From IMG/VR virus record IMGVR_UViG_3300044612_003086, positions 1 through 64,000 of that record: 64,000 bases of DNA; one strand, written 5' to 3'. The stretch is from an uncultured virus (IMG/VR IMGVR_UViG_3300044612_003086) (Duplodnaviria; Heunggongvirae; Uroviricota; Caudoviricetes). The translations under genes and the position numbers were made by a program. Shown one piece after another: positions 2,424 to 30,593 of the stretch. Position 1 is the first letter of the stretch; every line of letters starts with the position of its first letter. A model generated the notes under the pieces. The model had not been told where the DNA came from, ran no database searches, and saw nothing but the letters and a program-made list of their open reading frames with translations.

Positions 2424-2717
2424 ATGCCTTCCAAAAATACTCAAAAAATTGGAAATTCTTTTCCTCGTCCGCTGCCGAACCCAATTTCTGGCGGGGCTCC
2501 AACGGTAAATGGGGGCATGAAGGCAATTCTTGCGATTCTGAATCTTGTGTTTGTGTCGGTCATGCTCGGCTCGGTTCTGTATCTTGCTCTGCGTGTCGTG
2601 AGCGTGGACGGCAGTGGAGTGAGTATCACACTCTCTCTGTGGCGTTGCGTGGTGCTGGCGTTGTTCTACACGCTGTGGCGACTTGTCGTTACTGCACTCT
2701 TGCGTGTGCGTGACTAA
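2424..2717 (+). CDS. hypothetical membrane protein
   Basis: 97 aa, two TM-like segments, AGGAG RBS. Confidence 0.55.
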   Translation: MPSKNTQKIGNSFPRPLPNPISGGAPTVNGGMKAILAILNLVFVSVMLGSVLYLALRVVSVDGSGVSITLSLWRCVVLALFYTLWRLVVTALLRVRD

Positions 2718-2879
2718 CAACTTATCTAGTAAGTAGATACGAGCGAATCGCATGCACTTATCTAGTTCATGTGTATTGACTAGATAAGTACCAGTGGTGA
2801 TACTGACTAGATAAGTACCGAGTGTGATACACGCAATACAAGTAAGCAGAATCATTATCAGCACTTATCTAGTCCTTTC

Positions 2880-3101
2880 TCAAACAATTTCTAAGTCAAG
2901 TTCAGCGAGTGAACTCAACTGCGAAATGAAGTCAATACCTTCGTTCCACAGTAGATTCTCGTAGTCCTCACTTGCTTTCTTTGGTGTGTACGAGCCTGTC
3001 GTAATTTCGTCCAGTATTCCAGTCAAATAATGAATCGCATGTTTCAGGCTGTCTTGCAGTTCGCTCAATGCTTCCTGCACTGCTTCATCGGGTGTGTCCA
3101 C
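2880..3101 (-). CDS. hypothetical protein
   Basis: 73 aa acidic ORF; AAAGGA RBS, GTG start overlapping the 11-mer. Confidence 0.7.
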   Translation of the reverse strand: MDTPDEAVQEALSELQDSLKHAIHYLTGILDEITTGSYTPKKASEDYENLLWNEGIDFISQLSSLAELDLEIV

Positions 3102-3139
3102 TTATCTAGTCCTTTCACTTATCTAGTAGGTATTGGGAG

Positions 3140-3293
3140 TGCCTAGCCCTCTCGTAGAGCGTTAGAAACGGAAAGTGTATCGCTTGGTATTCAGAGCGAC
3201 ACACGCTCGCCGAGAGAGCGTAGGCAAGTCGTACACGGTTCTCCCCAACTGTGTACGCCAAGAGTGGGGGCTGGCTCTCACCAACCCCCACCC
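3140..3293 (-). ncRNA. candidate structured RNA (three consecutive hairpins)
   Basis: Long imperfect stem 3140-3226 plus hairpins 3230-3257 and 3262-3293; most mismatches become G-U pairs on the minus strand. Confidence 0.45.
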
Positions 3294-3311
3294 GAGGACT
3301 TATCTAGTCAC

Positions 3312-4853
3312 TCAAGCGAGTGGGATTTTGCCCATGTGTCTGCGCCACACATCACGGAACATCGCTGGATAGACACTCCGTGCCGTTCCACCGTTGCTCA
3401 ATGACTTGAGTTGCTTTATCGCTTCCTCAACATGAGGAACAACGATGTAGTTGTTCTTGCGAGCGTAGGTGAGACACTGCATAGCGAGTGAATCGTGGAA
3501 ACTGTCGTTCACGCCACACACTCCACCGTCTGTTACCCAAACAAGAGGAGTGCGAGAATCTTTGCGATTCTTTACGCCCCACTGAATTGCTGGATAGTCC
3601 ACGCCGTTGCCGTGTCCGTAGTCAATTCCTTCCACTGTCTCAACCATGCGTCCTTTGTCGCCAACGACCCATGCGTTATGACCACGACTACCTCTGTCGG
3701 AGTAGAGCAACACAGTAGCCCCAGGGGCATGCTCAATAATTTCGGCAATTTGTTCTGTCGTGAACGACATAGAACCACTTGCGTCAATAACGACCATGCC
3801 ACCACTGCCACGCACCTTTCGGTCAAACACTCGCATAGCAGGGTCGGTCATCATGCGTTGCATACGGCGAGGTCTGCGACCTGCGTTTGTTGCAATACGC
3901 TTCTTACCGATACCACCTTTGCTGTAGCGAGGCATTGGCATACGCTCAAGACGAAGTTCGCCCCATTTCGGAGTGCCAGTGGTGATAGCAGACGGAGTTA
4001 TGTCCTTGAGTGGATTTCCGTCCTTGTCGCCTTCACCTTCCTTGCCTTCACCTTCGTTGCTGTGGGCTTTGGACTTATCTAGTGAGTTACCTTCGCCCTC
4101 GCCACCAGCCTTGCTCTTGCTCGGCTTTGGTTGCTTCCGTTCCTTTGGTGGTGGGAACGAAGCGAGCCTGTCCACCCACTCGGCGAGTTGTTCCGTGTAG
4201 GTGAATCCGAACGGCGCAAGTCCGTTGTGAACTGTCGTGTTAGCCAAGTGACCAGTGCGATGAGCCTTCTTCATCTCACGCACGGCTCGCTTGCCAATGT
4301 CTAGCAGTTGGTCGCCCCATGCACGATTCACTCTGCGAACGCCGTTGAGAAATTGCTTGTGTCCAGCACTTCCAGCAGTTCCAACGCACATAGCAACTGC
4401 CATTGCCCAGTCGTTAGTTTCTGCGCAACGCTGTCCACTTGCGAGTTCGCTTCCGTCAGCAAGGTGTTTCTTTACATCTATCCCTGCCTGTTGGCAGAGA
4501 AAGTTCACACGAAGTTCCTCAACGACAGTGAGTGCTGTAGCCGAAGCCATTTCACGCTTGACCCACTCTGCCATTTGTGCCGAATCAGGCGACACCTTTG
4601 CGTGCATGAGTTCGTGCGCACGAATCGCCCGAGCCTTGTCGTCATTGTCCGTTGGTGCGAACATGATTTTGTTAGTCACATCGGTCATTGGCTCGCCACG
4701 CACGGCTTGGCAGTGTTCTACTGTCCAAACTCCGTGTGCTTGGTCACGCCGACCGAGAAGGGTTGCCTCGGCTTTGGCGTTACCCCGAGTGGACTTATCT
4801 AGTCCACTCGGGAACGCCTTGCCAGCAACATGCTTGCCAGCAGGTTGAGACAT
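3312..4853 (-). CDS. HExxH metallopeptidase-like + vWA (MIDAS) domain protein, partner of the adjacent AAA+ ATPase
   Basis: HELMH, VVIDASGSM and VWVTDG motifs; low-complexity linker; overlaps the AAA gene stop. Confidence 0.8.
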   Translation of the reverse strand: MSQPAGKHVAGKAFPSGLDKSTRGNAKAEATLLGRRDQAHGVWTVEHCQAVRGEPMTDVTNKIMFAPTDNDDKARAIRAHELMHAKVSPDSAQMAEWVKREMASATALTVVEELRVNFLCQQAGIDVKKHLADGSELASGQRCAETNDWAMAVAMCVGTAGSAGHKQFLNGVRRVNRAWGDQLLDIGKRAVREMKKAHRTGHLANTTVHNGLAPFGFTYTEQLAEWVDRLASFPPPKERKQPKPSKSKAGGEGEGNSLDKSKAHSNEGEGKEGEGDKDGNPLKDITPSAITTGTPKWGELRLERMPMPRYSKGGIGKKRIATNAGRRPRRMQRMMTDPAMRVFDRKVRGSGGMVVIDASGSMSFTTEQIAEIIEHAPGATVLLYSDRGSRGHNAWVVGDKGRMVETVEGIDYGHGNGVDYPAIQWGVKNRKDSRTPLVWVTDGGVCGVNDSFHDSLAMQCLTYARKNNYIVVPHVEEAIKQLKSLSNGGTARSVYPAMFRDVWRRHMGKIPLA

Positions 4854-5581
4854 TATTTCACCCCGTCAATGGCGAGTGCGTCAAGAATCTGACGGGAACG
4901 GTCGCCGAAAGTGAGTGAGCATGCTCGTTCCATGCCAACGCTCGCACGGAGTTTGTCCAATGCGATGAACGCACGAAGTGAGATACGGTCGTCACCAGCG
5001 TCAGCCATGCGAACGGCGTACTTGCGCAAGTCAGGAGACAAGCGAAGCAGTGCGCTCGGGTGTGGCTCGTTGATACGAATACGAATCGGGAAACGGTCAG
5101 CGAGTGCTGTTGGCAACTCACCCATGTTCTCAATGTTCGTGGTCATAATTGCCGAGAATCCACCGAGAGGACGAATCACTTCGCCAGTTTCAGGATGCTC
5201 AAACGAAGCAGATTCAGGTGAATCCAACATCGCCAAGAGTGTTGCGAACACATCGCCCGAAGCCTTATCTACTTCGTCCACGATGAGTCGTCCACCCTCT
5301 GTTCCGTTGCCCTTCCATGCCTTGAGAGCCGAACCGTCCAGCCACATGAAGCCACCTTTGCCGTTCGGCATGAAGCCACCTGTAACATCCATGTTCGTCA
5401 TGTCCTCGGTGCAGACCAGTCGGAACGCACCAGCGTCCACTTTGCCGAGCGTCATGCCAGCGTAGGTCTTTCCGATACCTGATGGACCGTAGAGGATTAC
5501 TCGGTCTATCCCTGCGTTGAGGCAGTCCTCAAGTGCTTTCCAGCACTCGGGGAGAGCCGTTGTTTCTGTCTGTGCAACCAT
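4853..5581 (-). CDS. MoxR/CbbQ/CobS-like AAA+ ATPase
   Basis: Walker A GPSGIGKT, Walker B LIVDEVDK, sensor MTTN, ALADRF. Confidence 0.88.
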   Translation of the reverse strand: MVAQTETTALPECWKALEDCLNAGIDRVILYGPSGIGKTYAGMTLGKVDAGAFRLVCTEDMTNMDVTGGFMPNGKGGFMWLDGSALKAWKGNGTEGGRLIVDEVDKASGDVFATLLAMLDSPESASFEHPETGEVIRPLGGFSAIMTTNIENMGELPTALADRFPIRIRINEPHPSALLRLSPDLRKYAVRMADAGDDRISLRAFIALDKLRASVGMERACSLTFGDRSRQILDALAIDGVK

Positions 5582-5888
5582 TGGTATTTCTCCGTTTCTA
5601 GTAGTTGGGTTGGTTGTCGTGTACCACTGTAGCGACCCGACAGCAGATTTATCTCGCCACTTATCTAGTTAGTTCATACCACTTATCTAGTCAGTCCACT
5701 TATCTAGTTAGTTTCACTCGGACACTTATCTAGTTAGTTCCAGCCACTCGGTAATCGTTCGGCAACTTGCACCCGACCACCCCGTGCCTCGCCAACTTAC
5801 ACCCGACCACCCCGAGCCTCGCTTCCTTTGGAAGCCCCGCGGACTTATCTAGTTAGATACAGAATTATTAGATTTTTGACTTATCTAG

Positions 5889-6368
5889 TTAGTCAGGTCG
5901 CTTGGCGATAGAGATTCGGTACAAGCCACGCTTGACCTTGATGAACTCTGGAGTTTCGTTCACGAACCCGAGTGTCGTCTGATACGAGAATCCACACTGC
6001 TCAACCAGTTGCTCGGTGGTGAACTCTTTACCGTCTTGGGTCTTTGCCCACTCCATAAACGCACCCCATTTGTCCTTGCGTTTTTCAGGCTTCTGCATTG
6101 CTTCCCTCTGGACTTCCTTGCCACAGTATGTCTGAATAATGTGGTCGGCGATGTGGGGAAGCACGGAGTAAGAGTTCAGGTAAGAAAGCACATTTTTGCT
6201 TCCACCTTCCCTTTGCCATAATTGCAGTACATGTAGCCCACGAATCAGTTCGCTGGCATTGGACGCTTGTTCTTTGGGAATCCGATACATCGTTCCGAAT
6301 TCTTTTTCCATTTCCTTCCACATCTCTTTGTGGATTCCGTCAATGAATTCATCAGTCAGTTTTTTCAT
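5889..6368 (-). CDS. hypothetical protein, possible C-terminal winged HTH
   Basis: 159 aa; AAAGG RBS; own promoter element at 6414-6441. Confidence 0.7.
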   Translation of the reverse strand: MKKLTDEFIDGIHKEMWKEMEKEFGTMYRIPKEQASNASELIRGLHVLQLWQREGGSKNVLSYLNSYSVLPHIADHIIQTYCGKEVQREAMQKPEKRKDKWGAFMEWAKTQDGKEFTTEQLVEQCGFSYQTTLGFVNETPEFIKVKRGLYRISIAKRPD

Positions 6369-6732
6369 GGCTACCTTTCTAGCGGAACTTTATCCCGACT
6401 TGCCCGTCACTCCAGATTATCTTTTGGTAGGCAGACTTATCTGGTACGGCAACGCAAGAAAGTTATTTTTTTGACCACCTGACATCGAGGGCACTTCCTT
6501 TCCACCACCGTCAATTAGATTCACCACCCCCCGGGAATTAAATTTGTCAAATTTTTCATTTTTTTGCACGTTCTGGCGGCCGGCTGCGGCGGCTCTGGAT
6601 TTCTGGATTTTTTGGCAGCGAAACGCGGGGCTTACATGGTGAATCGGGTGCATAAAGAAAGAGGGTGGGTTTGACCCCACCCCCTGACTTATCTAGTTAG
6701 TTATCGGACTTATCTAGTAACTAGATAAGTGG

Positions 6733-7131
6733 CTACTGGTTCTTGAGAAAATCCTCAATGTCGGGAATCGTCTCTTTGGCTATTTCCCGTGCTTCCGAAT
6801 AAGCCATAGCGTCCATAATCAAGTCGTCCAGCATGTCTGCCAATGCACGGTCGTCCTCTGTGAGCAATGGTCCATCAGGACTTGGCACAAGAAACTTTAG
6901 CGCCTCATCCTTCTCCTTGTCGGGGAGTTGTGCAATTTCTTGCACCTGCGAGAAACTGAATCCCATTCGGTGACCATGATTCTGATAAACAAACAGTGCC
7001 TCGGTCAATGTCTGCAATGCGTCAAATCCGAATCTGATAAACGGATTCTCGGTGGGAAACTCGGTGTTATCAGAGAACACTTTTTTCATTATTTCTTGCA
7101 TTTCTTCATCATGGTTTTGTTGTTCGCTCAT
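6733..7131 (-). CDS. hypothetical protein
   Basis: 132 aa ORF, GAGG RBS. Confidence 0.7.
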   Translation of the reverse strand: MSEQQNHDEEMQEIMKKVFSDNTEFPTENPFIRFGFDALQTLTEALFVYQNHGHRMGFSFSQVQEIAQLPDKEKDEALKFLVPSPDGPLLTEDDRALADMLDDLIMDAMAYSEAREIAKETIPDIEDFLKNQ

Positions 7132-7280
7132 TTCACTTCCTCTTTCTGTTTGTCGTTGGTTATTAGCGAACGCAGGTCAAGCAACATGTCGGTCATTTCC
7201 GATGAAGCAACTAAGTCTCTGCCCGAGCAGTGACGAATCATTGTGTCCACCAGTTCGGTTGCTGTAAGTGTTTGGGTCAC
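7128..7280 (-). CDS. small hypothetical protein (50 aa, not in ORF track)
   Basis: GTG start in the 11-mer after AAGGGA; stop overlaps the next ATG (ATGA). Confidence 0.6.
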   Translation of the reverse strand: MTQTLTATELVDTMIRHCSGRDLVASSEMTDMLLDLRSLITNDKQKEEVK

Positions 7281-7284
7281 TTAT

Positions 7285-7989
7285 CTAGTTCCCTTCTTTG
7301 TCGTTGTCGGCTTCGGTGAGCAAGGTGTGAAACGCCTTTGCCTTTATTGCCATTTTCAGGTATGAAATCGTCTGAAGCATGGCATTGGTGAAACGAGCCT
7401 CAGCCATTTCGCTGTTCTCATCTGTCAGGTGAACAATGTCAGTGTCCACATCATCAAACATCGGTACACCTTGGTCGTCATAGGTGTAGGTGCTTGCGCT
7501 CATGTAAATCTTGTCCTGTTCCCAGTCCACGCCACTTACTACAAGACCCTCACGAACATCGGTGAAAGGGTTGTTTTGGAACTCATCTTTCAGCGATTCT
7601 CTTTCACTGTCACGGTCGGCTGGAGTCGTCAGGTCTGTGAAGCGACGCATGTAACCCTCAACAGCAACAAAGATGAAGTTCACTGGTGCTGTAGGCAAGT
7701 GACCAACAGCGTCAATGTAAGCGTCGTATGGGTCGCCTTTGTGAATCAGTGGAAGCATGGCAACATCGTATTGGCGTTCCAAGCCCAACTGCTTTGTGTA
7801 TTGACTTGCTGATTCAGCCAATTCATCATCTGTATCATCAGACTGGTGAATACGACCAATGATGAGCATTGGTGGGGTGTCGCTCATCGCAACCTCTTTG
7901 CACATTTCTTTTTTTGCATACTTGTTTCGGCGCATTACATCGCCGAGAATCTTTAGTATGTCGTTTGAGATTACTTGCTGTTCGCTCAT
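7285..7989 (-). CDS. hypothetical protein
   Basis: 234 aa, AAGGAG RBS, promoter element at 8020-8047; stop TAG supplied by the 11-mer. Confidence 0.75.
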   Translation of the reverse strand: MSEQQVISNDILKILGDVMRRNKYAKKEMCKEVAMSDTPPMLIIGRIHQSDDTDDELAESASQYTKQLGLERQYDVAMLPLIHKGDPYDAYIDAVGHLPTAPVNFIFVAVEGYMRRFTDLTTPADRDSERESLKDEFQNNPFTDVREGLVVSGVDWEQDKIYMSASTYTYDDQGVPMFDDVDTDIVHLTDENSEMAEARFTNAMLQTISYLKMAIKAKAFHTLLTEADNDKEGN

Positions 7990-8096
7990 GGCGTTTCTCC
8001 TTTGGTGGTAAGTACCAACACTGTATCTATTAGTAAGCAGACTTATCTAGTGAGTATGGGTGGGGTGTCCACTCCCCACCCATTTCACATCAGGCA

Positions 8097-8321
8097 TTAT
8101 TTTGCAATAATGTCTTGGGCGTTCACTTTCATCGCTTCGCACAACAATAGAAATGTCGTCATGCTTGGCGAGAAATGTCCGTTCTCAATGCGATTCACCG
8201 TTTTACGGTCAATGCCAGCCTTATTCGCCAGCGTTTCTTGTGACCACTCACGCTCAAGTCTTTCGTTCTTGAGTCGCTCTGCGATTCGCATTGTCTTTTT
8301 CTCAATGGCTGTAAGTGCCAT
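8097..8321 (-). CDS. XRE/Cro-family HTH transcriptional regulator
   Basis: WSQETLANKAGIDRKTVNRIENGHFSPS; AAGGAG RBS. Confidence 0.9.
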   Translation of the reverse strand: MALTAIEKKTMRIAERLKNERLEREWSQETLANKAGIDRKTVNRIENGHFSPSMTTFLLLCEAMKVNAQDIIAK

Positions 8322-8355
8322 GTCTTTCTCCTTTGTTTCTTGGTTGATTTTGGGT

Positions 8356-9123
8356 TTAGGACTTATCTAGTAAGTAATCGTCATACTGACTGAACGATAG
8401 TTTCTCCTTTCGCCTCTGATTAGAACGAATCCACGACACGATGAGTTGCATCGCCTTGTCGCACGAATCAACCATTTCATCGTCACGGTTTGCTCGCCAC
8501 TCACTCTGTGCTTCCCAGTATTCGTCCATTTGTTCATCGGTATCTTGGGGCATGCCCTCTATCTCCGAATCCATTTCGGTTACACCTTCGCCCTCAACAA
8601 TGAGTTCGCCATTGTGGATTACAACCCAACCAGCAAAGAACTCGGCTTCTTCCGTGAACACGACACCGAATACAAGTTTCGGGAACTGCTTTGAGATACG
8701 AGCGATAAGACCGTTACACGGCGACCATGCTGACTGGTAATACATTGAGACAGAACCCTTGTTGTAGTCGTCATCAGATACGCCAACATCACCTGCGCCC
8801 CACTTGCTTCCCCATACGGCGTTGGCATAGTCGTACCAGTCCTTGTAGCCGTACTTATCTAGGTTGTCTTGCATTTGCTTTTTGTGTTCAGCCTGTTTGT
8901 CCTCGGGAACTGAACCCGAAACCGTGTTCATCAACGCCTCGGGAATCGGGTCAAGGTGGTTGAGTGAATCAACTTCTACTTCTTTTTCACCAGTGGCTAC
9001 CCATTTGCCGTCTTGGATTTCTCCAGTCTTTTGCAATTCCTTTATCTTGAGTGATTTCAGGAATCGCTTGAGTTCAGGTTTCGGACCTGACACCTTCATT
9101 GTGTTACTGCACCAGTTTGGCAT
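8356..9123 (-). CDS. DUF1281/YubB-like ferredoxin-fold protein
   Basis: MPNWCSN start, WYDY...WGSKW, YQSAWSP motifs; AAAGGG RBS. Confidence 0.75.
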   Translation of the reverse strand: MPNWCSNTMKVSGPKPELKRFLKSLKIKELQKTGEIQDGKWVATGEKEVEVDSLNHLDPIPEALMNTVSGSVPEDKQAEHKKQMQDNLDKYGYKDWYDYANAVWGSKWGAGDVGVSDDDYNKGSVSMYYQSAWSPCNGLIARISKQFPKLVFGVVFTEEAEFFAGWVVIHNGELIVEGEGVTEMDSEIEGMPQDTDEQMDEYWEAQSEWRANRDDEMVDSCDKAMQLIVSWIRSNQRRKEKLSFSQYDDYLLDKS

Positions 9124-9401
9124 GCTCGCCCTTTCGTCTAGTAGTGGTACGACCCACTCTAGCCCCACACCAGCAGATTTATCAACCTGACTTATCTAGT
9201 CAGCATGTTCTTCCACCACCGTCAATGTCTTGATGTGTTCTCAACCCGACCCGACTTTCACCCGACCCACCCGTGAGCCGACCCAACTTCTTGCCGACCA
9301 CCCCGAACCAGCCCCACCCCATCACTTACCGTGTAAGCCCCGCGTCCCACTGTTTAGCCGGGGCTCAAAGGGTCGAGCTGGTTTAATTTGGTTGGACTTA
9401 T

Positions 9402-9731
9402 CTAGTCAGTAATGATTTCGTCTGCGTAAACGAGTTGTGTTTCGCTGACACGCCAGCCGTTCTGATGGTCCGTCCATGCGTACTTGATAAGTGCCGTCCA
9501 CTTATCTAGGTAGTCATAAATCTCATCATCGGGAATCCCATAGTCGTCAAAATACGAAGTGTCGTTCGGGTCTGGCGAGAAAGAGAAATAGACAAATGAG
9601 CGACCCTCTGGAAACTCCACTCTGCACTTGCTGCCGATGAGAATCAGACCACGAGCCTTTATTGCGAGCATGGTCAGAAAGAGCCGAATCGTAACCCATA
9701 GGGGAACGAAGAACTTATCTAGTAGGTTCAT
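9402..9731 (-). CDS. hypothetical protein
   Basis: 109 aa, overlaps upstream gene; stop inside the 11-mer. Confidence 0.6.
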   Translation of the reverse strand: MNLLDKFFVPLWVTIRLFLTMLAIKARGLILIGSKCRVEFPEGRSFVYFSFSPDPNDTSYFDDYGIPDDEIYDYLDKWTALIKYAWTDHQNGWRVSETQLVYADEIITD

Positions 9732-9957
9732 ACGCCATCTCGTTTACGTCTTTGCCGAGAAGTTGGTCTGTAGTCAGCCGAATTATTGAGCGCACAATGT
9801 CGTCACTTGTTATGCCCCACGAATCAAGAGCCCACGCCAATAAAGTTCCATTTGCTAAATCACCACAAATTGCTTCTATTGCTTGAGCCCGTGTCGTGGC
9901 AAGGAAGTAGTAGTTCTCCCACAAAATCTTGTCTAAATCTTCAGGCGTCAGAACCAT
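9715..9957 (-). CDS. hypothetical protein
   Basis: 80 aa, AAGGAG RBS. Confidence 0.65.
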   Translation of the reverse strand: MVLTPEDLDKILWENYYFLATTRAQAIEAICGDLANGTLLAWALDSWGITSDDIVRSIIRLTTDQLLGKDVNEMAYEPTR

Positions 9958-10223
9958 TTCTCTCCTTTCACGGAAACAGTAGTCCGTACCACCCCAGTTT
10001 CGGTAGCAGAAACCACGACTGGAGTCAGCACCTTGTATGCGTTTATCCAGTACTTAGACCGTTCAGCAGACCTGACCCATTTCGCCCTTTCTTCATCGGT
10101 CATGTATTCCCACTCATCGGGCATTTCATTGGTGGGGATACTCCACTCCTCAATTATTTCTTCTTCTTCGTGTTTCACAATTTGTGCGCTCGCACGGACT
10201 GTGATGTGAACATGGGCAGTCAC
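9948..10223 (-). CDS. hypothetical protein
   Basis: 91 aa; AAAGGA RBS + GTG start in the 11-mer. Confidence 0.65.
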   Translation of the reverse strand: MTAHVHITVRASAQIVKHEEEEIIEEWSIPTNEMPDEWEYMTDEERAKWVRSAERSKYWINAYKVLTPVVVSATETGVVRTTVSVKGEKWF

Positions 10224-10236
10224 TTATCTAGTCCTT

Positions 10237-10737
10237 TCAGTACCAGCAGGTAGAGCCGTCTGCCTCATCGGCAGTCCAACGAAGCCACCAAATCGCATAA
10301 CGAATCTGAGGAATCAAATCCTCACCGTTCACGATGAACTCTGGAGAATCCTGAATCTTTTCGTTCAGAAACCATTCCATTTGGTTGGCAGTTGCTCGGC
10401 AACTCTCTGGAGACTTCTCCGTACCTTCCTCATTGTCGCCATAGAAATCGTATTCGCTAATGCCAAGAGCGTCAATGAGGTAGTTCCCCCACTTACCCCG
10501 ATACCAGCACGGAGTTCCGAACATGCCGTACACAGCACCTTCGGTCATGCCACTTGCCTTGACTGCTGTCTGATACGGGCATGCGTTGCGATTAGCAGTT
10601 TCCTCACAGGAAATGCTTTCCACGAACTCACCGTCTTGTCCACGAATCGGCTGACCTTCCTTGTCCAGTCGCCTCACCATTACTGCCGTGCCTTTGGACT
10701 TGCACGGGTAGTTCTTCGGTATGTTGTCTAATCCCAT
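10237..10737 (-). CDS. hypothetical protein (MGLD-start phage family)
   Basis: 166 aa, AAGGGG RBS, promoter element at 10769-10796. Confidence 0.75.
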   Translation of the reverse strand: MGLDNIPKNYPCKSKGTAVMVRRLDKEGQPIRGQDGEFVESISCEETANRNACPYQTAVKASGMTEGAVYGMFGTPCWYRGKWGNYLIDALGISEYDFYGDNEEGTEKSPESCRATANQMEWFLNEKIQDSPEFIVNGEDLIPQIRYAIWWLRWTADEADGSTCWY

Positions 10738-21840: not shown

Positions 21841-21898
21841 TGCCTCCGACCGATGTGAAGCGCTCACAAAGGCAAACAAACAACTAGGAGATAGCTAA

Positions 21899-22177: not shown

Positions 22178-22183
22178 TTACGC

Positions 22184-22666: not shown

Positions 22667-22873
22667 CTAGAACAGGGCTATTTGGATACCACCAGTATCT
22701 TCTACTTGTTTGCAGTAGTTGTGCTTGTATTCGTGAAGCTCGTCAATAACTTCGGAAATTGTTGTCCCCTTGGCTTTAAGCCAAACAACAGCTTTACGTT
22801 CGCTAATCGAATCTTGTGGGCGCAACGGTAGACCACATACGCAACACGTGAACAACGGTGGGAGTGAAGCCAT
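22667..22873 (-). CDS. small Zn-finger-like protein
   Basis: CCVC...HNYC. Confidence 0.5.
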   Translation of the reverse strand: MASLPPLFTCCVCGLPLRPQDSISERKAVVWLKAKGTTISEVIDELHEYKHNYCKQVEDTGGIQIALF

Positions 22874-22879
22874 AATCTA

Positions 22880-23077
22880 TTACCACTTTCCTACTGGGCA
22901 TTCAGCCTCAATTAGTCTTGTTTTTAAATGCATGAAGCAACCACACACAGCGCACTGCTGCGTTTGGCGCAAGAATTCAGGGCATGCCTTGCAGATAGCG
23001 AAGCGCTCCTGTTGTTTCTTTTCGGTCGTGTAATTCTGTCGGCGCAGCAAGTGCCAGGGCATGTTTCGTCGTCTCAT
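22880..23077 (-). CDS. small Cys-rich protein (DUF6171-like)
   Basis: RFAICKACP...QCAVCGCFMHLKT...CPVGKW. Confidence 0.65.
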   Translation of the reverse strand: MRRRNMPWHLLRRQNYTTEKKQQERFAICKACPEFLRQTQQCAVCGCFMHLKTRLIEAECPVGKW

Positions 23078-23331
23078 AACTTAATCCCGACCACCCCGTG
23101 CCTTGCTATCAAATTTTAAAAATCCGTACAGAACTAGCAAGAGCAGCACGGAAACAATAACGCTGTTGGTATCCATGGACCCATGATAGCGATTTTCTCG
23201 CTTTTCATCAAGCTCACTGATAAACCTGCTTTCCTCGACTTAGGATTCACATCGCAGACCGGCAGGGCTCACACTCTCCTTTCGGTATCCAACACACGTG
23301 AGCCTTGTCGGTCCTCATTTTTATCTGTACA

Positions 23332-25269
23332 ATGTCCATCGTGAAGTTATTTTTAGACCACAACGAAATAATTCTTGATTTTCCATTTGATGCCGGCCAG
23401 GTTGAGGAAATAAAACGCATATCAGGTGCAAGGTGGGACAAGATTGGCCGTGTGTGGCGCTTACCAATTACGGCTATCAATGAAGGTCGTGAGTTTGCAT
23501 TGCGTCATAACTTTGAGGTCACTGTCGATGCTCTAAAGTTCTCCGTACCAATACCTGCTATAGGGCGCACCGGTGCTCGTGTGTATGTCGATAATGGTAT
23601 GGCGGTTATCCGTGTGCCTTATGAGCGAGTAATCATTAAGGCTATTAAACAAATACCTGGCATTACATGGGATAGCAAAATGCTTGCATGGAAAGCCCCC
23701 CTTACATCGATTACAAATATCATTACGTGGGCCAAATCTTTCGGCGTTACCGTAGACAATGAGCTAATGGACATGGCTGTACAAGTAGAGACAGAGATGA
23801 CTGAATTGATACAGGCATCACGCTCGGTAGACGCAGAGATACAGATACCTGAACTACAAGGCGCACTGCTGCCGTATCAGAAAGCTGGAGTTTCGTACGC
23901 TGCAAGAGCCCGTAGGACATTTATCGCTGACGACATGGGTCTCGGAAAGACACTGCAGGCGATGTCCACGCTCGAATACGTTCACGACAGTTACCCAGCA
24001 GTCGTTGTATGTCCACCAAGTCTCGTGCTTAACTGGGCGAGTGAATATTCGAAGTGGTATCCACATCGCAAGGTGGCCACTGTGACGAACCGTAAGTCAT
24101 TCCCTGACGCAGGCACATATGACGTTGTGGTAGTTGGATACAGCAATATCGCTACATGGGAGAAGCAACTATCCAAACATCGCTCGTACGTATGGGATGA
24201 AAGCCACTATCTAAAAACGCCCACCTCGCAGAGAACGAAAGCAGCAGTCAAGATAGCTCGTAGCGCACCAAAAGAAGGTCTCGTATTGTGTCTCACGGGA
24301 ACACCCGTAACGAACAGGCCGAACGAATACGCAAGCCAACTTGATGTACTGGGTCGCCTCAAGGACTTTGGTGGGTTGTGGGGTTTCTATCGACGCTATT
24401 GCGCTGCATACCAAGACAGTTTTGGTCAGTGGAATATCAGTGGACACTCACACCTAGACGAACTCAATGACAGGCTTCGTGGCACTTGCTACATACGCCG
24501 TACGAAAGACCAAGTGTTATCGGAGTTGCCACCCGTAGTCCATAGCAAATTGCTGGTAGAGGGCTCATCACAAGCGATGAAAGAATACAAGAAAGCAGAG
24601 AACGACATTATTCTCTACATCGCAGAGCGAGCCCGACAACTCGCCATAGAGCAGGGCAAGTCACAGCACGGCGCTGCCATATCAGCAATGATTAGGGCAG
24701 AAGCGAACGAACATTTAGTCCGTCTGTCGGTGCTTCGCCGTCTTGCTGCGAAAGCAAAGATGGAAGTCGCTCATGAGTGGATTACTGAACGTATAGAGGC
24801 CGGCCGTAAGGTCGTTGTCGCTGCACACCATCGAGACATCGTTGACGAAATCGCCCGTAAGTATGGAGACCTACGTATTCAGGGTGGAATGAAGGTTGAG
24901 GAAGTAGAGGAGAATAAACGCAAGTTTCAGCAGTTAACCGTAGATAAAGCACCCGTAATCGTGTTATCTATCCAGGCTGCCAAAACTGGACACACACTCA
25001 CTGCGTCAGAGGAGTGTTTATTCATAGAACTTCCGTGGACACCAGCAGACGTAGACCAGACATACTCACGCCTACATCGCATCGGACAACAAGGAAGCGT
25101 GACGGCAACTTATCTATTAACTAAAGACACCATTGATGAGGAGATTTATCAACTCATCGAGCGAAAGCGTTCGGTGGTAAATGCGTCAGTAGAAGGTGGG
25201 GAGTTCGCTAACGAGGATAGTGCCGTGCAACTTATTCTGAATTTACTCGGTAAAGCAGAACAGAACTAA
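23332..25269 (+). CDS. SNF2-family helicase with N-terminal HARP-like repeats
   Basis: ADDMGLGKT, DESH, LTGTP, Q-x-x-SRLHRIGQ; two N-terminal (A/T)-x-WD...W-x-x-P repeats. Confidence 0.92.
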   Translation: MSIVKLFLDHNEIILDFPFDAGQVEEIKRISGARWDKIGRVWRLPITAINEGREFALRHNFEVTVDALKFSVPIPAIGRTGARVYVDNGMAVIRVPYERVIIKAIKQIPGITWDSKMLAWKAPLTSITNIITWAKSFGVTVDNELMDMAVQVETEMTELIQASRSVDAEIQIPELQGALLPYQKAGVSYAARARRTFIADDMGLGKTLQAMSTLEYVHDSYPAVVVCPPSLVLNWASEYSKWYPHRKVATVTNRKSFPDAGTYDVVVVGYSNIATWEKQLSKHRSYVWDESHYLKTPTSQRTKAAVKIARSAPKEGLVLCLTGTPVTNRPNEYASQLDVLGRLKDFGGLWGFYRRYCAAYQDSFGQWNISGHSHLDELNDRLRGTCYIRRTKDQVLSELPPVVHSKLLVEGSSQAMKEYKKAENDIILYIAERARQLAIEQGKSQHGAAISAMIRAEANEHLVRLSVLRRLAAKAKMEVAHEWITERIEAGRKVVVAAHHRDIVDEIARKYGDLRIQGGMKVEEVEENKRKFQQLTVDKAPVIVLSIQAAKTGHTLTASEECLFIELPWTPADVDQTYSRLHRIGQQGSVTATYLLTKDTIDEEIYQLIERKRSVVNASVEGGEFANEDSAVQLILNLLGKAEQN

Positions 25270-25733
25270 TCGGTTTCGGAACTTGTTTCCGACTTACCCG
25301 TGGCACCCTGGGTGCGACCGTAAAATATTTCCTCTGCAATTAGTTTGGAATATTTCTTACGCAAGCGCCATATTTTCTTGTTCATTTCAGTCATCTCTTG
25401 GCTCATTCGAGCTTTGATTATTGCTTTGTCGTCATACACGCCGTGCCCATTAAATAGTGCGTCATGGATATCTGCGTCCTCAATGATGATGTCTGATATC
25501 CAACCGGCACGTTTGTCTATTGCCATCATTAATTCACACAAACCCTCTACGCCGAATTCATCGTGAATTCGATTTGCGATTATTGAGCAGAAGTGTGAAC
25601 GATACATATTTCTCGCTTTCTGCGAGTTAGACATGAACTCGGATATGAACAGCGCAAGTTCTTCCTTTGTCGGCATTTCTTCGCCATCATCACCGGCAAA
25701 TTCGTAAAAATCGTCTGCGCCGTCGTTATTCAT
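25266..25733 (-). CDS. hypothetical protein
   Basis: 155 aa, GAGG RBS. Confidence 0.7.
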   Translation of the reverse strand: MNNDGADDFYEFAGDDGEEMPTKEELALFISEFMSNSQKARNMYRSHFCSIIANRIHDEFGVEGLCELMMAIDKRAGWISDIIIEDADIHDALFNGHGVYDDKAIIKARMSQEMTEMNKKIWRLRKKYSKLIAEEIFYGRTQGATGKSETSSETD

Positions 25734-25781
25734 CTTGCCTCACTTTTCTATGGGCTTGACTAATAATACCCGTACTAGAAG

Positions 25782-26807
25782 TCAGACATTTGTTAATAGA
25801 TAAGTTTGAGTTTTTAGTTTTGTTCTCGTCACCCATGAGTTGTTGTCCATGGACGCGAGCGCGCGTTCATCGCGAGAAGCATCTCGGTAGTGGTCGAGAT
25901 ATTCGCCGATGGCGTTATAGATTGACCAGCCGTTGTACCCGTAGTTCTTTGCGTTGTTTTCGTTTTCATAAATAGCGCGAACTAGCGACAACACGTCATC
26001 ACGGTTCTTTCTCTGACGCTCTGTGCTATTTGGCTCTATCGGAAATGCTGTATTTAGGACTTTGTCAAGAACTTGTGTGCGTGCTGGAACTTTCACTGCC
26101 AGTAGTCGTTCGGCAGTAGCAGCAAAGTTGTTTGCCCATTCATTAGATATCGCAAGAACTTCATTCGCTTGCTCTATCGCTCTGTCTGCATTACGAGTGT
26201 GACGAGCAGTAAATACCCGTCGAGCGCTTTCTATGCCAAGCGTTACGGTATTTTGACATACGGCACGAATAGAAGTGTTGGCGAATGTAATTGCCGTCTT
26301 TCCATCGTGTCCATTGCGAACAAGTAAGTAGCGCGCTATTTGGTCATTCACGCCAGCAGGGTCTACGACTATCGCGCCCAAGTCAAGTGAAGCAAAGAAA
26401 CCTTTTCCATCGTGTAGAACACCGGCGGTATCTACAACTGCGTCTCCTTCGGAAGCACCCACGATGCTTAGCGCATAATCCAAACACTCTTTATTCTGCT
26501 GAACTACATAACGCGTTCCAACGGTGGCCAAACCGGTGAATGTGCCGTCAATGTTGACCCGTACGGTTGCACGACTGTCCGGCACGAGAATAGTTGTGCC
26601 ATCAGGGTTCCGTAGTGGTTCGCCATTGTCATCGCAAATTGCCACCCGTGTTGTGACTACATCGAAGTTCGCCTGTGAAGCTTCGAGCATTGCCTCTGCC
26701 GTTTGTAGCCCCTTCATTGGCGTTCCAAGCCTGTGCCACGGGATTTCTCTGTCGGCGTATGCCATTCTCGCTGTGCCGTCTTTATTGATTTCTAGTCCGT
26801 GTGCCAT
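25782..26807 (-). CDS. DUF932 / TIGR03299-like phage-plasmid protein
   Basis: MAHGLE...PWHRLG...YVVQQN...NGHDG...IRAVCQNT...ARHT. Confidence 0.85.
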   Translation of the reverse strand: MAHGLEINKDGTARMAYADREIPWHRLGTPMKGLQTAEAMLEASQANFDVVTTRVAICDDNGEPLRNPDGTTILVPDSRATVRVNIDGTFTGLATVGTRYVVQQNKECLDYALSIVGASEGDAVVDTAGVLHDGKGFFASLDLGAIVVDPAGVNDQIARYLLVRNGHDGKTAITFANTSIRAVCQNTVTLGIESARRVFTARHTRNADRAIEQANEVLAISNEWANNFAATAERLLAVKVPARTQVLDKVLNTAFPIEPNSTERQRKNRDDVLSLVRAIYENENNAKNYGYNGWSIYNAIGEYLDHYRDASRDERALASMDNNSWVTRTKLKTQTYLLTNV

Positions 26808-27012
26808 TTCGTGTCTTTCCTTCTCTCTCTTTTAGATAAATCTAACCGAGTATTGCCTGGTTCATTGTACACCGGGGCTCCAGAGGCAGGGGCAGTGGTT
26901 GGGGTTCGGTCTGTGGCGAGGGCGCACGGGTGGGTCGGCAGAAAGTCGGATAATTCTGCTCGTCAATGGTTATGATTTATTCAGGAACTAACGCTCGTGA
27001 AAGGGGCAACTA

Positions 27013-27291
27013 ATGAAGTTACTAGATAAGTGCGAAAACTGGTGTCAGGAACATTATCTCGGAACGATGAAGGCTCTGCTCGGCATTATCTCTGCCGTGC
27101 CGACTATCGGACTGTTCGGAGTGGTTCAGGCGTACTACAACAGCAACATCGGCGACCTGCTGACCTGTTTGTTCATCGTGGTAGGTGGAACGGTGATTAC
27201 CACCCTATTCGCTCTGACCGTGTACAACGAACATCAAGACGAACGCTACGGCTCTATTCGCCGTCACCCAGTCACGAAGCGAGTGCGCTAA
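27013..27291 (+). CDS. hypothetical membrane protein
   Basis: Two TM segments; AAGGGG RBS; promoter element at 26949-26976. Confidence 0.7.
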   Translation: MKLLDKCENWCQEHYLGTMKALLGIISAVPTIGLFGVVQAYYNSNIGDLLTCLFIVVGGTVITTLFALTVYNEHQDERYGSIRRHPVTKRVR

Positions 27292-27992
27292 TGACTACGA
27301 CAGCACTGGACACCCGTAGCGTGTTAGCAGAAATGCTAACAGAAAACACTGGAACGCACATCTTGGACAGTGGTGGCGCATACGGCAGGAACTGGGAACG
27401 AAACAATGGCAAGACGCTTGCCGATTTTGAGAACGAACCGACTGCGTGGGCTGACGGTTATGGCGTAGTGCTTTCAGTTTTTCACTTTCTTGCGAACCGT
27501 GTGGAGTTTCTGCCGAGTATCCAAGCCGAGTTAGATGATTTGGCACGGTGTATGCCTGATGAGGGCTGGTTGGCTATCGCCGAGACACTGGCTGAACGCT
27601 ACGACCCTAAGCCTCGTACTTGGAACACTTACAACGGCGAGGACAGTCTTTCGCAAACACTACAAGGCGTATCGTTCACCCGTAATGACGGTGAGACTGT
27701 GAGCCTTATTCAGATACACGGGGGCTGTGATGTTCGTGGTGGATACACGAAGCCTCGTGCTTTCCGTGTGACGGTGGAAATGGCTGACTGTTTCCCATAC
27801 GACCACAACTCTTATGAGTTGGAGTGTCCGACTGATAACGAACACTCTCTCTCGTATTTGGGTGAGTACATCGGTTGGCACGGGTCAAGCATTGACGCTG
27901 ATGAGTATCCGACATACGACAGCGAGAAGCGAACAGCGAACTGTGTGAAGTGTGGTTCGCCATTCATCGTTCACGCCTCTGAACCGTACTAG
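27291..27992 (+). CDS. hypothetical protein
   Basis: TAATG coupling; MLTENTGTHILDSGGAYGRNW, IHGGCDVRGGYT; stop inside the 11-mer. Confidence 0.75.
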   Translation: MTTTALDTRSVLAEMLTENTGTHILDSGGAYGRNWERNNGKTLADFENEPTAWADGYGVVLSVFHFLANRVEFLPSIQAELDDLARCMPDEGWLAIAETLAERYDPKPRTWNTYNGEDSLSQTLQGVSFTRNDGETVSLIQIHGGCDVRGGYTKPRAFRVTVEMADCFPYDHNSYELECPTDNEHSLSYLGEYIGWHGSSIDADEYPTYDSEKRTANCVKCGSPFIVHASEPY

Positions 27993-28225
27993 ATAAGTCT
28001 CAACGGTCACCCGTAGCCTCTGCGCTCTTATCCCCAACCCCCTTTCATCAAGGGCGTAGGGGTTACGGGGTTTCACTTATCTAGTGAGCATTACTCTGCT
28101 ACGGCGAGACTATGACTTACTAGATAAGTGTTCATCACAAGTGAGGGCAAAGTGCGAAGCACTGCGCCAGCCGGGGCTCCGAGCGTTTGAGTGTGGTTTG
28201 TGTTGTAACTAGATAAGATGATGAG

Positions 28226-28558
28226 ATGAACGAGAACACCTATCGAACAGCAAAGACAATTCTCATCGCTATCGCAATAACACTTGCGTCAGTATTCGCA
28301 TTTGGGTATTTGGAAAGACAGCAAGCAAGAGACAGTGAGTTCTTTTGTGATGGCACACCAGTCACTATCAAAGAAGGCGACACTCTCTATTGGATAGCCC
28401 GAACAAAGTGTGAAGGCAACACTATGGAAGTGGTGGACAGACTTGTCGCCCTGTACGGCACGACATTGACTATCGGTGACACCATCTATCTGCCGACACA
28501 CAACTCCTGTGAGTTGCGTATGACAGACGGTGGTCAAGTAATGGAAGAGTGTGCGTGA
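28226..28558 (+). CDS. membrane-anchored LysM domain protein (paralog of 13535-13834)
   Basis: TM segment then VTIKEGDTLYWIA...LTIGDTIYLP. Confidence 0.8.
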   Translation: MNENTYRTAKTILIAIAITLASVFAFGYLERQQARDSEFFCDGTPVTIKEGDTLYWIARTKCEGNTMEVVDRLVALYGTTLTIGDTIYLPTHNSCELRMTDGGQVMEECA

Positions 28559-28567
28559 TGAACTTAT

Positions 28568-28771
28568 CTAGTTCAGTATCTGTCCAACACTGACAACGAA
28601 AACTTCTCCACAGTAAAGCACACGGGCGTACTGTTTATCTGTGTCGTGGTATGAGATGAACTCTGCTTCCACAGCACCCGTAGTCATTCGGCGTGCCTTG
28701 TCTGAAACGATGTGACCGAACGACACTGGTATCAACAGCGTCTGACCTACGGTAAGTCCTTTGGTAATCAC
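28568..28771 (-). CDS. hypothetical protein
   Basis: 67 aa; start overlaps upstream stop; stop inside the 11-mer. Confidence 0.5.
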   Translation of the reverse strand: MITKGLTVGQTLLIPVSFGHIVSDKARRMTTGAVEAEFISYHDTDKQYARVLYCGEVFVVSVGQILN

Positions 28772-28956
28772 TAGATGCCGTATGTTCCGAGTTGAGTGCG
28801 CTCTGCTTGGCGCAAGACTTCGTAGATTTCGGAAACATGCGCTTCCGTGTGTTCATCATCAGCGAACAACCTGACTATCTGTAAGACACACTCCAAGCGA
28901 GCAACCTGCTGTGCCGTAAGTGTGATAGTGAGTTCTGCGTTTCGTGCTATTCCCAT
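28771..28956 (-). CDS. hypothetical protein
   Basis: AAGGGG RBS; promoter element at 28978-29005. Confidence 0.6.
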   Translation of the reverse strand: MGIARNAELTITLTAQQVARLECVLQIVRLFADDEHTEAHVSEIYEVLRQAERTQLGTYGI

Positions 28957-29004
28957 TGTGTTCCCCTTTCGGTATTGACCTTAGGGTAGGGCGAGCAGAC
29001 TTAT

Positions 29005-29412
29005 CTATTTACTATCTGTGACATCACGCCACTGACCATCAACGACCACCTGATAGTGCGCCCCCGACACTGGCACGAGTTCGCCATTAGCATTGCGTTC
29101 ATACTTGCCGAAGTTCTCAGTGGAACGCCATGCCCACTCACAGCACGGTGTTTCACTATCGCAGGGGTGTGTCCCCTTACCTATCGTCTCTGCCAATGCT
29201 GGGAACAGAGTAAGGAACTTCACTATGCAGTCGTGACACAGTATCCAACTACGGCTACGGCGATTACTAAACAGTACATCTACCTCATCAGTGAAGCCAC
29301 CATAGTAACCAAATAGGTCAAATGGTAAATCCCAACCGTTACTAGGTAGGTGCTTTTGTTCATCGCACTGGACATCGTAGTCACAACCTGAACAGCGAAC
29401 ATGGTTACTCAT
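29005..29412 (-). CDS. hypothetical Cys-rich protein
   Basis: CSGC...CHDC; promoter element at 29422-29449. Confidence 0.65.
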   Translation of the reverse strand: MSNHVRCSGCDYDVQCDEQKHLPSNGWDLPFDLFGYYGGFTDEVDVLFSNRRSRSWILCHDCIVKFLTLFPALAETIGKGTHPCDSETPCCEWAWRSTENFGKYERNANGELVPVSGAHYQVVVDGQWRDVTDSK

Positions 29413-29474
29413 AACATCTCAACGATAGTCGTATGCGAGCAGACTTATCTAGTACCCGTAGCACTTGGCGACTT

Positions 29475-29888
29475 CTATGACTGGCGTGTGTTGAGGCGAA
29501 GGTAGGCAGAGTAGGCGTAGTTGCGTTGGCGTTGGCGTTCGGCGTGTGCCCTCTCTGCGTCTGCTGGGGGCATACGGTCTATCTCATCATCAGTGGGTGC
29601 GAAGCCTATCTCCCTCTCTGCTTCTAGCATCAGTGACACAAGGCTAAGCGTGTGGGTGTCTGCGTACTCACCCGTAGCGATGTGGCAACCTTGTTCATCT
29701 AAGTCAAGTGCCAACAGTTCGCTTGCTACCTTTGAGATGAATACACCTGTGAGTTTCATCTGCGACAGGCGTTGGTGTGTGGTCAGGTGTTCGTTCGCTG
29801 TCCTCTTAGACCGAAGCAACTGTGTGTACATACTGTTGCTTGGAACGAAAGCGACAAACTCTGATGGGGTTGGCTCTTGTGTTGTCAT
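29475..29888 (-). CDS. hypothetical protein
   Basis: 137 aa ORF. Confidence 0.6.
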   Translation of the reverse strand: MTTQEPTPSEFVAFVPSNSMYTQLLRSKRTANEHLTTHQRLSQMKLTGVFISKVASELLALDLDEQGCHIATGEYADTHTLSLVSLMLEAEREIGFAPTDDEIDRMPPADAERAHAERQRQRNYAYSAYLRLNTRQS

Positions 29889-30593
29889 CTCATCTCTCTC
29901 TTGTGTTTGTGTGTGTCGTGTGTATGCGATGTGTATGAGCGAGGCTCTGCGTGGCTAAGCCCACACCAGACCCGAAACCCGACAGACCCGACAGTGCTGT
30001 TGGTTTTGTTGGCGTGTCGTGTTGCGTGTTGGATTACATCGGGTGTGTGGTCTCTCTCTCGGCGTGTGTCTTACTGAAACACTTGGATAAATCGTCTTGC
30101 TGTTTTTTGGGGTGTCGTATTCGGGTCGTGACTTATCTAGTGAGTTGTGTCGTTTTGTAATCAGCCAGAAACCATCGGCACACACTGCGAGAGACTGCTG
30201 TGTGTCCTCTGCGTGTGTGGACTTGTTGCCGACTACCCCGAGTACCGACACAAATTGCGAAAAATTGTTCGCAGTGTCGCCTCGCAGCACCTGTCTCTTG
30301 TAGCCCCGCGAAACTTTCTCGGTTGAGGCAGGGTGGGTGGGGGAGCAAAATCGCAAAAAATTCATCCCAGGTTTTTCACTTAAATTTATCCAATGCATAC
30401 AGCTCGGCCGCCAGTTTGCGGACTTTCTTCCAGTGTCTTGATTGTCTCCCATTTGCCCCCAGACAGCATGGGATGAGCCCTGTGAAGGACAAATGCATGA
30501 ATGCCCTGTCTTCGTATGCTTCAATCACGTCCGGTGAATCCGAGTACAAAGCGTCCTGTGTTTCTTTCACGGTTCAAGCGTATACTGAAATTC

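Follow-up and report, generated by a model that had tools for sequence, protein, structure and literature searches.

The DNA analyzed here, referred to as the window, is the 64-kb opening stretch of one virus contig of 133,891 nt (IMG/VR IMGVR_UViG_3300044612_003086; 89% completeness according to CheckV) from an actinophage-like freshwater or lake virus and includes an accessory stretch of small genes of ~28 kb. Between positions 2,492 and 30,308, 12 four-letter words are nearly gone, each observed 0–11 times versus 45–130 expected, and the purge is organized as a set of transcription-unit-like cassettes with unpurged spacers between them, not as three simple modules. Most of the depleted words are sequences recognized by known enzymes of type II or IIS. 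Our favored reading, to which we assign a probability of roughly 0.55, is that the purged cassettes constitute a leading or early accessory region exposed before general protection of the genome, with staged entry of the DNA as the favored but unproven cause.

Depletion of restriction-type words

Expected counts of four-mers were calculated with a second-order Markov model, and the modules (21,135 nt in total) were compared with the 42,327 nt of the window outside them. Observed/expected counts in the modules were 0/71 for GATC, 1/45 for TATA, 2/65 for GGCC, 2/47 for TTAA, 2/50 for ATAT, 2/81 for AGCT, 4/62 for CCGC, 4/130 for TCGA, 5/73 for CGCG, 8/96 for ACGT, 10/49 for CCGG and 11/57 for GCGG. 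CATG, CTAG, GTAC, GCGC and AATT were retained and TGCA was halved. Outside the modules, GATC (0/131) and, partly, TATA (78/128) were low, and no others. An earlier note had described by eye the loss of AGCT, GGCC and CCGG from the modules; counts over its segments (1–2415, 2500–17550, 17551–17989, 17990–20650, 20656–26872, 26880–30300 and 30308–64000) bear this out, with 17, 1, 5, 1, 20, 0 and 139 copies of AGCT, 6, 2, 4, 0, 13, 0 and 66 of GGCC and 6, 8, 5, 1, 14, 1 and 64 of CCGG, respectively. The Markov-corrected frequencies thus differ between segments, and the effect is wider than the three words named.

Along the whole contig, the purge is limited to kb 3–19 and 27–29. In the 103 kb of main genome beyond the region, GATC is the only word missing, with 0 copies versus 668 expected on both strands; it is absent from the entire 133,891 nt and is the sole one avoided genome-wide, the others being at expectation outside the block. 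Synonymous-codon shuffling of 28 module open reading frames (ORFs) yielded 461 ± 17 sites versus 17 observed, compared with 624 ± 19 versus 468 for 16 ORFs outside, so neither protein sequence nor codon usage explains the loss. Because non-palindromic words are depleted in both orientations in the modules, the target is double-stranded DNA rather than RNA.

Longer words were counted on both strands in the purged blocks of the window's genome (G000) and of a divergent relative (G002), pooled to 38.6 kb. Among five-mers, observed/expected counts were 2/84 for TTSAA, 1/41 for CCWGG, 2/31 for CCTCC, 10/86 for GCWGC, 8/49 for GGWCC, 9/46 for CGWCG, 14/79 for CTSAG and 22/78 for GAGTC, and these depletions are robust. 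Those of six-mers (CCATGG 0/23, GAAGAC 0/12, GAATGC 0/14.5, GTGCAC 0/11.6 and GTCAAC 1/29) are only suggestive, the expected counts being low. All of these five- and six-mers occur at the expected level in the main genome. Separately, we noted that one of the depleted five-mers, CCTCC/GGAGG, is Shine–Dalgarno-like; its 2 copies versus 31 expected in the G000 and G002 blocks stand against normal numbers in the main genome.

An origin other than restriction, as a by-product of composition, codon usage or avoidance of secondary structure or as an assembly or synthetic artifact, is extremely improbable. G+C content is indeed higher in the block (0.51 versus 0.45), dinucleotide ratios differ too, and TATA and ATAT are, to our knowledge, not sites of well-known enzymes. 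However, a 10- to 40-fold depletion remains after the Markov and synonymous-shuffle corrections, six palindromes are kept (the five retained words and, partly, TGCA) while non-palindromic words are lost, and the stretch recurs in contigs from 20 lake or freshwater runs as well as in many IMG/VR contigs, divergent ones included. As 19 of the 20 runs were flagged as possible sources, they do not count as independent; in each of two runs, among contigs of four runs compared, a single contig covers all 20 kb. The idea of a synthetic or recoded construct, raised by a motif with stop codons in all three frames (see below) and by the loss of type IIS sites, was rejected, as divergent natural relatives share the pattern and contigs from the 20 runs (19 flagged) contain the stretch.

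Cassettes, edges and hairpins

The region is laid out as follows (window positions, strand, feature).
2492–2498, +, left boundary half-site CGGGGCT (GCGGGGCTCC), partner arm absent nearby
2499–17552, −, purged block 1, left arm, with about 28 small ORFs, most on the − strand
6480–6632, no strand, unpurged intergenic patch with one 15-mer (6500–6514, −), ending in the arm CGGGGCT at 6626
17600–17963, −, unpurged island B, flanked by two complete hairpins, with a 74-aa ORF (17655–17879) lacking a family match
17990–20648, +, right arm of purged block 1, most of its genes on the + strand
20649–20655, +, half-site AGCCCCG, left edge of island C
20656–26872, no strand, unpurged island C, with an SNF2-type helicase (23305–25269), a DUF932 protein (25782–26807) and others
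26873–26879, +, half-site CGGGGCT, right edge of island C
26880–30301, no strand, purged block 2 (third module)
30302–30308, +, right boundary half-site AGCCCCG; G002 has the conserved AGCCCCGC(G)AAACTTT at 73018
30309–64000 and on to 133,891, no strand, main genome, all words at expectation except the absent GATC

The 7-mers at these boundaries are arms of hairpins of the form AGCCCCG-(16–40 nt)-CGGGGCT. Their 27 copies in the whole contig all lie within 1356–30308 and make up about 13 hairpins distributed through the region, nine of them complete:
9336–9365
10933–10962
12531–12561
13431–13469
14890–14920
15822–15852
17553–17606
17957–17995
19272–19311

Unpaired arms stand at the purge edges (2492, 20649, 26873 and 30302), where inverted 8-mers, GCGGGGCT and AGCCCCGC, are found. 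At the left edge, which has the same half-site in G002, sites of the unpurged type end with those at 2411, 2469 and 2491 and do not recur until 5837. Segmentation with a hidden Markov model, run without sites touching 7-mers, placed change points at 2500, 6350, 6600, 17550, 17950, 20750, 26700 and 30350, which lie 8, 276, 26, 3, 7, 101, 173 and 48 nt, respectively, from the nearest 7-mer. The expectation that change points coincide with the 7-mers thus held for five of eight (≤60 nt; chance for a random position 0.105, binomial probability about 5e-4) and failed for the other three, at 101–276 nt. Likewise, the view of the 7-mers as marks of a switch agrees with the position of the purge edges but not with their recurrence as hairpin arms all over the region.

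Residual sites mostly fall in the hairpins, which sit at the 3′ ends of units. Spacers around hairpins inside the blocks, with limits drawn after the data had been viewed, contain 42 sites in 1,205 nt (34.9 per kb versus 31.9 per kb in the main genome), 19 of them clear of the arm core, while the units contain 15 sites in 20,003 nt (0.75 per kb). This agrees with the earlier description of sites in the junction spacers and in the patch at 6480–6625 and of the small module at 17600–17963 as an exception that retains its sites. A typical unit, read on the coding strand, starts with an 11-mer, ACTAGATAAGT, which in three in-block units is preceded by a 15-mer, TTGACGGTGGTGGAA; one to four small ORFs with further 11-mers between them, a short spacer, the hairpin and, often, a G-rich tract follow. 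Classical intrinsic terminators were considered for the hairpins and discarded, since 20 terminator-like sites compare with 18.6 ± 3.0 in shuffles.

Given this architecture, selection might act per expression unit, consisting of promoter, genes and 11-mers, rather than on the whole region, and the terminator-hairpin spacers would be free to keep sites or even to be enriched in them. Cleavage of entering DNA by host restriction would then be confined to the gaps between units, a 'cut here' design that leaves anti-defense cassettes intact and transcribable and spares the first wave of expression from harm; exonucleases might be slowed by the oriented 11-mers or by the hairpins. Such a scheme, which we consider unlikely, would account for purged units interleaved with unpurged islands without staged entry.

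Repeat motifs in the cassettes

The 11-mer ACTAGATAAGT is present in 69 exact copies (2720–30141, no single strand) and nowhere else in the 134-kb contig. Sixty of the 69 lie between genes or at stop codons, and among the 60 copies that fall in the left and right arms of block 1, 48 point the same way as the local genes. A frequent extended form, AACTAACTAGATAAGT, provides stop codons in all three frames. G002 (L012) uses a variant, AATAGATAAGT, instead, with 31 copies in 12 kb. The motif might serve as an operator or as a site of recombination or processing. The 15-mer, (T/A)TGACGGTGGTGGAA, has seven copies, each on the − strand and, where an 11-mer is present, about 17–25 nt upstream of it:
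466–480
1218–1232
2387–2401
6500–6514
9211–9225
10807–10821
13314–13328

Low-complexity tracts rich in C, with CGACCCACCC-like repeats and rich in G when read on the coding strand, adjoin hairpins at 17420–17550, 9240–9335 and 15790–15822. A further relative, the 153.9-kb contig G001 (L010/L095), ends inside two different hairpin spacers, at window positions of about 9383 and 17592, and both ends share the letters GGTTTA, which reflects either the deletion of 8.2 kb of cassettes from one hairpin to another or a break in the assembly at repeats. The same contig carries about 860 extra bases (window 28560–28577; L095 10975–11836) with the 9-mer core of the motif on both sides in the same orientation, an arrangement that suggests gain or loss of a cassette at the motif. 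Within the window, the cassette at 14084–14703 holds five of the seven ACGT sites found in units, so individual cassettes carry their own avoidance signature. An integron-like array was examined and set aside: no integrase or recombinase family was found by Pfam in 84 + 58 ORFs (three join-spanning ORFs left out; contig 89% complete). The conserved core of integron attC sites is of the GTTRRRY type, and the arms AGCCCCG/CGGGGCT differ from it.

Ongoing selection against sites

Selection on sites is ongoing and operates in place. Two relatives, L007 and L008, were compared with the window across 12.3 kb of block 1. L007 differs by 548 substitutions with a change of −5 in the summed count of the 12 words, whereas random placement of the substitutions gave +98 ± 11; for L008, 602 substitutions changed the count by +1 versus +106 ± 10. 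Singly, the words changed by about 0 versus +5 to +12 expected, except for ATAT in L008 (+5 versus +7.8). In the unpurged left flank, simulated and observed site changes agree.

These comparisons bear on the idea that the cassettes are the legacy of a mobile pool, recombining at hairpins or 11-mers, that was purged elsewhere, so that the phage context adds no selection. Individual signatures fit a pool, as seen in the five ACGT sites at 14084–14703 and in the third module of G002, which keeps only ACGT and TCGA, and so do the 860-bp difference of G001 between direct 11-mer copies, the ends of that contig in two hairpins and hairpin-flanked yet unpurged cassettes of G002 at 60–64 kb. We nevertheless judge it distinctly unlikely, as close colinear relatives with 548–602 substitutions in 12.3 kb show no gain of sites, block 1 is colinear and purged in both G000 and G002 at 65–83% protein identity, and the 142 ORFs scanned include no recombinase.

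Conservation and lineage variation

In IMG/VR, seven contigs are 95–100% identical to, and colinear with, positions 459–14850. The more distant G002 (158.7 kb), with a vWA-like protein that is 65% identical, has the left edge, the 12 purged words and the hairpin arms in common with the window; its counterpart of the block 1 left arm spans 42.7–56.4 kb. Island C is syntenic and unpurged there too (64.6–70.0 kb; SNF2 helicase, DUF932), and the counterpart of the third module (70.85–73.0 kb) is purged of most words but not of ACGT and TCGA. The consistently purged part is a single contiguous block of 16–18 kb in G000, G002, G004, G005 and G006; in the last four, less purged or unpurged hairpin-flanked cassettes come after the first block. 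A wider survey anchored on the AAA_5 protein returned 113 relatives, of which 80 were kept; at 58 of these loci, the sequence on either side was long enough for a comparison. The ratio of densities inside and outside the block, for the 11 words purged in the window's genome (without GATC), was <0.1 in 18 of these loci, 0.1–0.25 in 14, 0.25–0.5 in 21 and ≥0.5 in five, counts that are not independent because many loci are near-duplicates. The left edge of the block occupies the same genomic position in all these relatives.

The set of lost words differs between lineages, as compared for 24 loci picked by eye out of the 80. AATT, retained in the window's type (31/48 observed/expected) and in G002 (24/57), is depleted inside the block of L128 (1/38), L137 (0/36), L119 (3/28) and L122 (0/24). 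L119 and L122 in turn retain CCGC (38/51 and 35/53), and ATAT is retained in L112 (29/53), L114 (28/49) and L150 (39/34). L151 has GATC at 2/31 inside the block versus 22/28 outside, making the block a stricter zone even for this word, while in L176, GATC occurs throughout and the purge is absent. This mosaic points to variable host restriction repertoires, not to a single structural or mutational cause. The cultured Brevibacterium phage Cantare, with a 49% identical capsid protein, showed no regional purge; its TTAA is low genome-wide (6 versus 54).

The avoided words might alternatively be targets of the phage's own early nucleases, which would degrade host DNA while only the block is inside the cell. 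For T5, bioRxiv 10.1101/866236 states such a hypothesis, attributed to Davison and concerning A1. The main genome of the lake phage encodes an SNase-like ORF (57679–58080) and a PD-(D/E)XK nuclease. More than 20 distinct words would, however, require many nucleases, Pfam and PHROGs scans found no nuclease family inside the block, and word sets that vary among close lineages are a better fit to variable host repertoires. As staged entry would be needed here as well, we regard self-inflicted damage as very unlikely.

Proposed early exposure before genome protection

Taken together, the loss on both strands, the synonymous route, the lineage-varying words and a site gain of zero versus about 100 identify the selection as restriction-type. 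The earlier suggestion that the modules are exposed to host restriction while the rest is protected, therefore, stands in that such selection operates in the modules and not in the rest of the genome; timing of entry, modification or a protein coat, the causes it proposed, would each be a candidate reason for the difference.

The block probably functions in host takeover and anti-defense. Its DNA would have to stay intact in the cell through a short interval before the phage genome is protected, during which each recognition site would be a cleavage risk from the restriction endonucleases of the host strain. Sites may have been lost one by one through synonymous changes and then kept out. With a small chance of a cut per site, survival would fall multiplicatively, so that every site is selected against singly; such selection would tolerate constrained sites in hairpins as well as recently acquired unpurged cassettes. 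The main genome would either be unexposed or be shielded by a mechanism independent of site sequence. Were it to share the exposure, it would receive hundreds of cuts and purging 20 kb would be useless, which argues for site-independent protection of the rest, GATC excepted. A GATC-specific activity that defeats this protection would result in the genome-wide absence of GATC. The simplest way to expose one block separately would be time, with the block present and working before protection exists. Staged DNA entry could achieve this if the block enters and is expressed first, similar to the first-step-transfer (FST) DNA of T5 or the leading region of T7-like phages. In T5, EcoRI and CRISPR act only within the FST region (bioRxiv 10.1101/866236), and in Murciavirus phages, the region injected first is the only one in which a Type I motif matters (PMC12455610).

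Self-methylation at specific sites does not explain the indifference of the main genome, since no DNA methyltransferase was detected: PF00145, PF01555 and PF02086 had no match, and none was present among the 84 + 58 ORFs scanned. An unmodified zone within an otherwise modified genome offers another account of the same contrast. In it, base modification would shield the main genome against most enzymes, and the cassettes, left unmodified, for example, for reading by the host polymerase, would have to avoid sites; the genome-wide loss of GATC would come from a modification-tolerant or modification-dependent GATC enzyme. Candidate nucleotide-modification genes in the main genome include DUF1599 ('nucleotide modification associated domain 1', 514–1182), ThyX, MazG and a TauD-type dioxygenase, and a ParB_N plus PAPS-reductase-like pair, eight 2OG-FeII_Oxy_3 ORFs and the indifference to all sites except GATC would fit as well. 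The methyltransferase searches tell against this account, as does the lack of a TET/JBP match above the cut-off. Zonal modification would also need to track spacers and islands that alternate with purged units at a scale of 50–400 nt. No mechanism is known by which a base incorporated during replication would be kept out of 20 kb of the replicating genome, and we consider the account improbable.

Early exposure of the cassettes, the reading that we prefer, has to contend with several observations. Physical ends are one: PMC12455610 states that avoidance in a leading region should not matter under headful packaging. The direct-terminal-repeat records of four relatives start at arbitrary map positions, as in circular assemblies, and contig ends at 56 loci do not cluster at the block edge or at a hairpin. 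Contigs of the four runs (contigs, not raw reads) showed no starts, ends or usable depth step. Layout is another: with the unpurged 6.2-kb island C between purged blocks, a single contiguous first-entering segment is a misfit for G000, and spacers inside the block carry sites at main-genome density. Three copies of the promoter-like 15-mer (480, 1232 and 2401) lie in the unpurged left flank, so purged and unpurged genes may share one expression class. A scan of the block for sigma-70-type promoters showed no enrichment (13 versus 15.4 ± 4.7), and no module protein matched a named anti-restriction family in the Pfam and PHROGs scans. All of these weigh against early exposure.

Gene content and host context

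In addition to the vWA-like 513-aa protein (3312–4853) and the AAA_5 ATPase (4853–5581), the left arm of block 1 encodes DUF1281_C, DUF3846 and DUF6011 proteins. The right arm has a DUF4314 protein (17881–18534) and a 250-aa protein (19290–20042) matching phrog_4776. Pfam and PHROGs assigned no function to most block ORFs, PDB sequence searches gave no match, and a literature search on the polyvalent-protein domains DUF3846 and DUF4314 returned nothing. Further Pfam matches in the window comprise WhiB, ThyX, class II ribonucleotide reductase, MazG, SSB, a primase-helicase, an HK97-type capsid protein (59626–60975) and an exonuclease domain in a 2205-aa protein. Beyond it, the contig encodes a large terminase, Rad52-like and PD-(D/E)XK proteins and the ParB_N and PAPS-reductase-like pair. 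Rfam matches were solely tRNAs, with eight genes at 31719–33861 and 51552–53558 and none inside the purged region.

Judged by capsid and terminase, the nearest cultured relatives are Brevibacterium and Gordonia actinophages (43–49% identity), and an actinobacterium is the probable host. IMG/VR contains 435 relatives of the capsid protein. Two pieces of the window, 6.6 kb and 7.9 kb long, had no blastn match among 50,697 phage records.

Elsewhere in the genome, we observed giant ORFs of 2954 aa (G000 74948–83812, equal to L001 10948–19812), 2458 aa (65789–73165) and 2205 aa (window 37854–44471). The largest joins prohead protease, ArdC-N, zincin peptidase and UvrD helicase domains and looks like a packaged and ejected 'polyvalent' protein. 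At G000 115804–129252 (L003 and L004), at least eight 2OG-FeII_Oxy_3 ORFs occur in a run, together with one 2OG-FeII_Oxy_5 ORF, an Asp/Arg hydroxylase-like ORF and two glutathione-peroxidase-like ORFs.

Comparison with known systems

A literature search returned no description of a regional purge of this kind, only general or T5/T7-type precedents. The closest likeness is to the FST DNA of T5 and BF23, a sub-genomic block of small early-type genes without restriction sites in a genome that otherwise has sites and is indifferent to them, with inverted repeats at the block edge. The fraction is similar too, at 16–18 kb of about 155 kb here and 8% in T5. In T5, the FST DNA occupies a long terminal repeat at a fixed end of the virion DNA, repeats and inverted repeats at its inner edge act in cis as an injection-stop region, and the second step of transfer requires the pre-early proteins A1 and A2; for the lake phage, such two-step entry would be a prediction. 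The lake phage avoids many more specificities, has hairpin arms throughout the block and contains unpurged islands and spacers inside it. In addition, Pfam and PHROGs scans of the block gave no family match to the T5 pre-early proteins A1 and A2, and the host is probably an actinobacterium.

The leading region of Autographiviridae (PMC12455610) and those of conjugative plasmids likewise experience restriction selection on DNA that arrives and acts first, and they are variable and rich in accessory genes. The case of Autographiviridae concerns one Type I motif in podoviruses of about 40 kb with known ends. The lake phage differs in its wholesale loss of short type-II-like words and its roughly 150-kb myovirus-like genome. 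Genome-wide avoidance in virulent phages (Rusinov et al. 2018, PMC6286503) eliminates short palindromes of orthodox Type II systems, a pattern matched here by GATC over the whole genome. The other 11 four-mers, in contrast, are avoided in about 15% of the genome only, with edges sharp to tens of bases.

For the 11-mer alone, a comparison can be drawn with the stoperators of cluster A mycobacteriophages, which are dozens of exact asymmetric sites, oriented with transcription and located in short intergenic gaps or over stop codons, at which a bound phage repressor halts elongation. The 69 copies, their orientation (48 of 60 co-oriented) and their positions (60 of 69 intergenic or at stops) suggest a likeness at the sequence level. 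Unlike stoperators, the 11-mer is confined to the purged region, is unrelated in sequence and, in the AACTAACTAGATAAGT form, stops all three frames; it is at most a putative operator.

The principle is thus known from T5/BF23, T7-like phages and plasmid leading regions, as is genome-wide avoidance. New are the scale (>20 words depleted about 40-fold, with edges defined to within tens of bases), the organization by cassettes interspersed with spacers and islands that are not purged, the differences in word sets across lineages of a large family of uncultured actinophages and the contrast with a main genome that avoids GATC only. The question raised is what causes the other 85% of the genome to be indifferent to every site except GATC. 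If early exposure is the correct reading, sequence alone would mark the first-exposed DNA in a large family of abundant uncultured lake phages. The word lists of lineages would then serve as a readout of restriction repertoires in hosts not yet grown, and comparing them with host genomes from single cells or metagenome assemblies could pair phages with hosts. Restriction filtering of part of a genome, the principle of T5 and T7, would extend to an unrelated phage group, in which its effect is far stronger.

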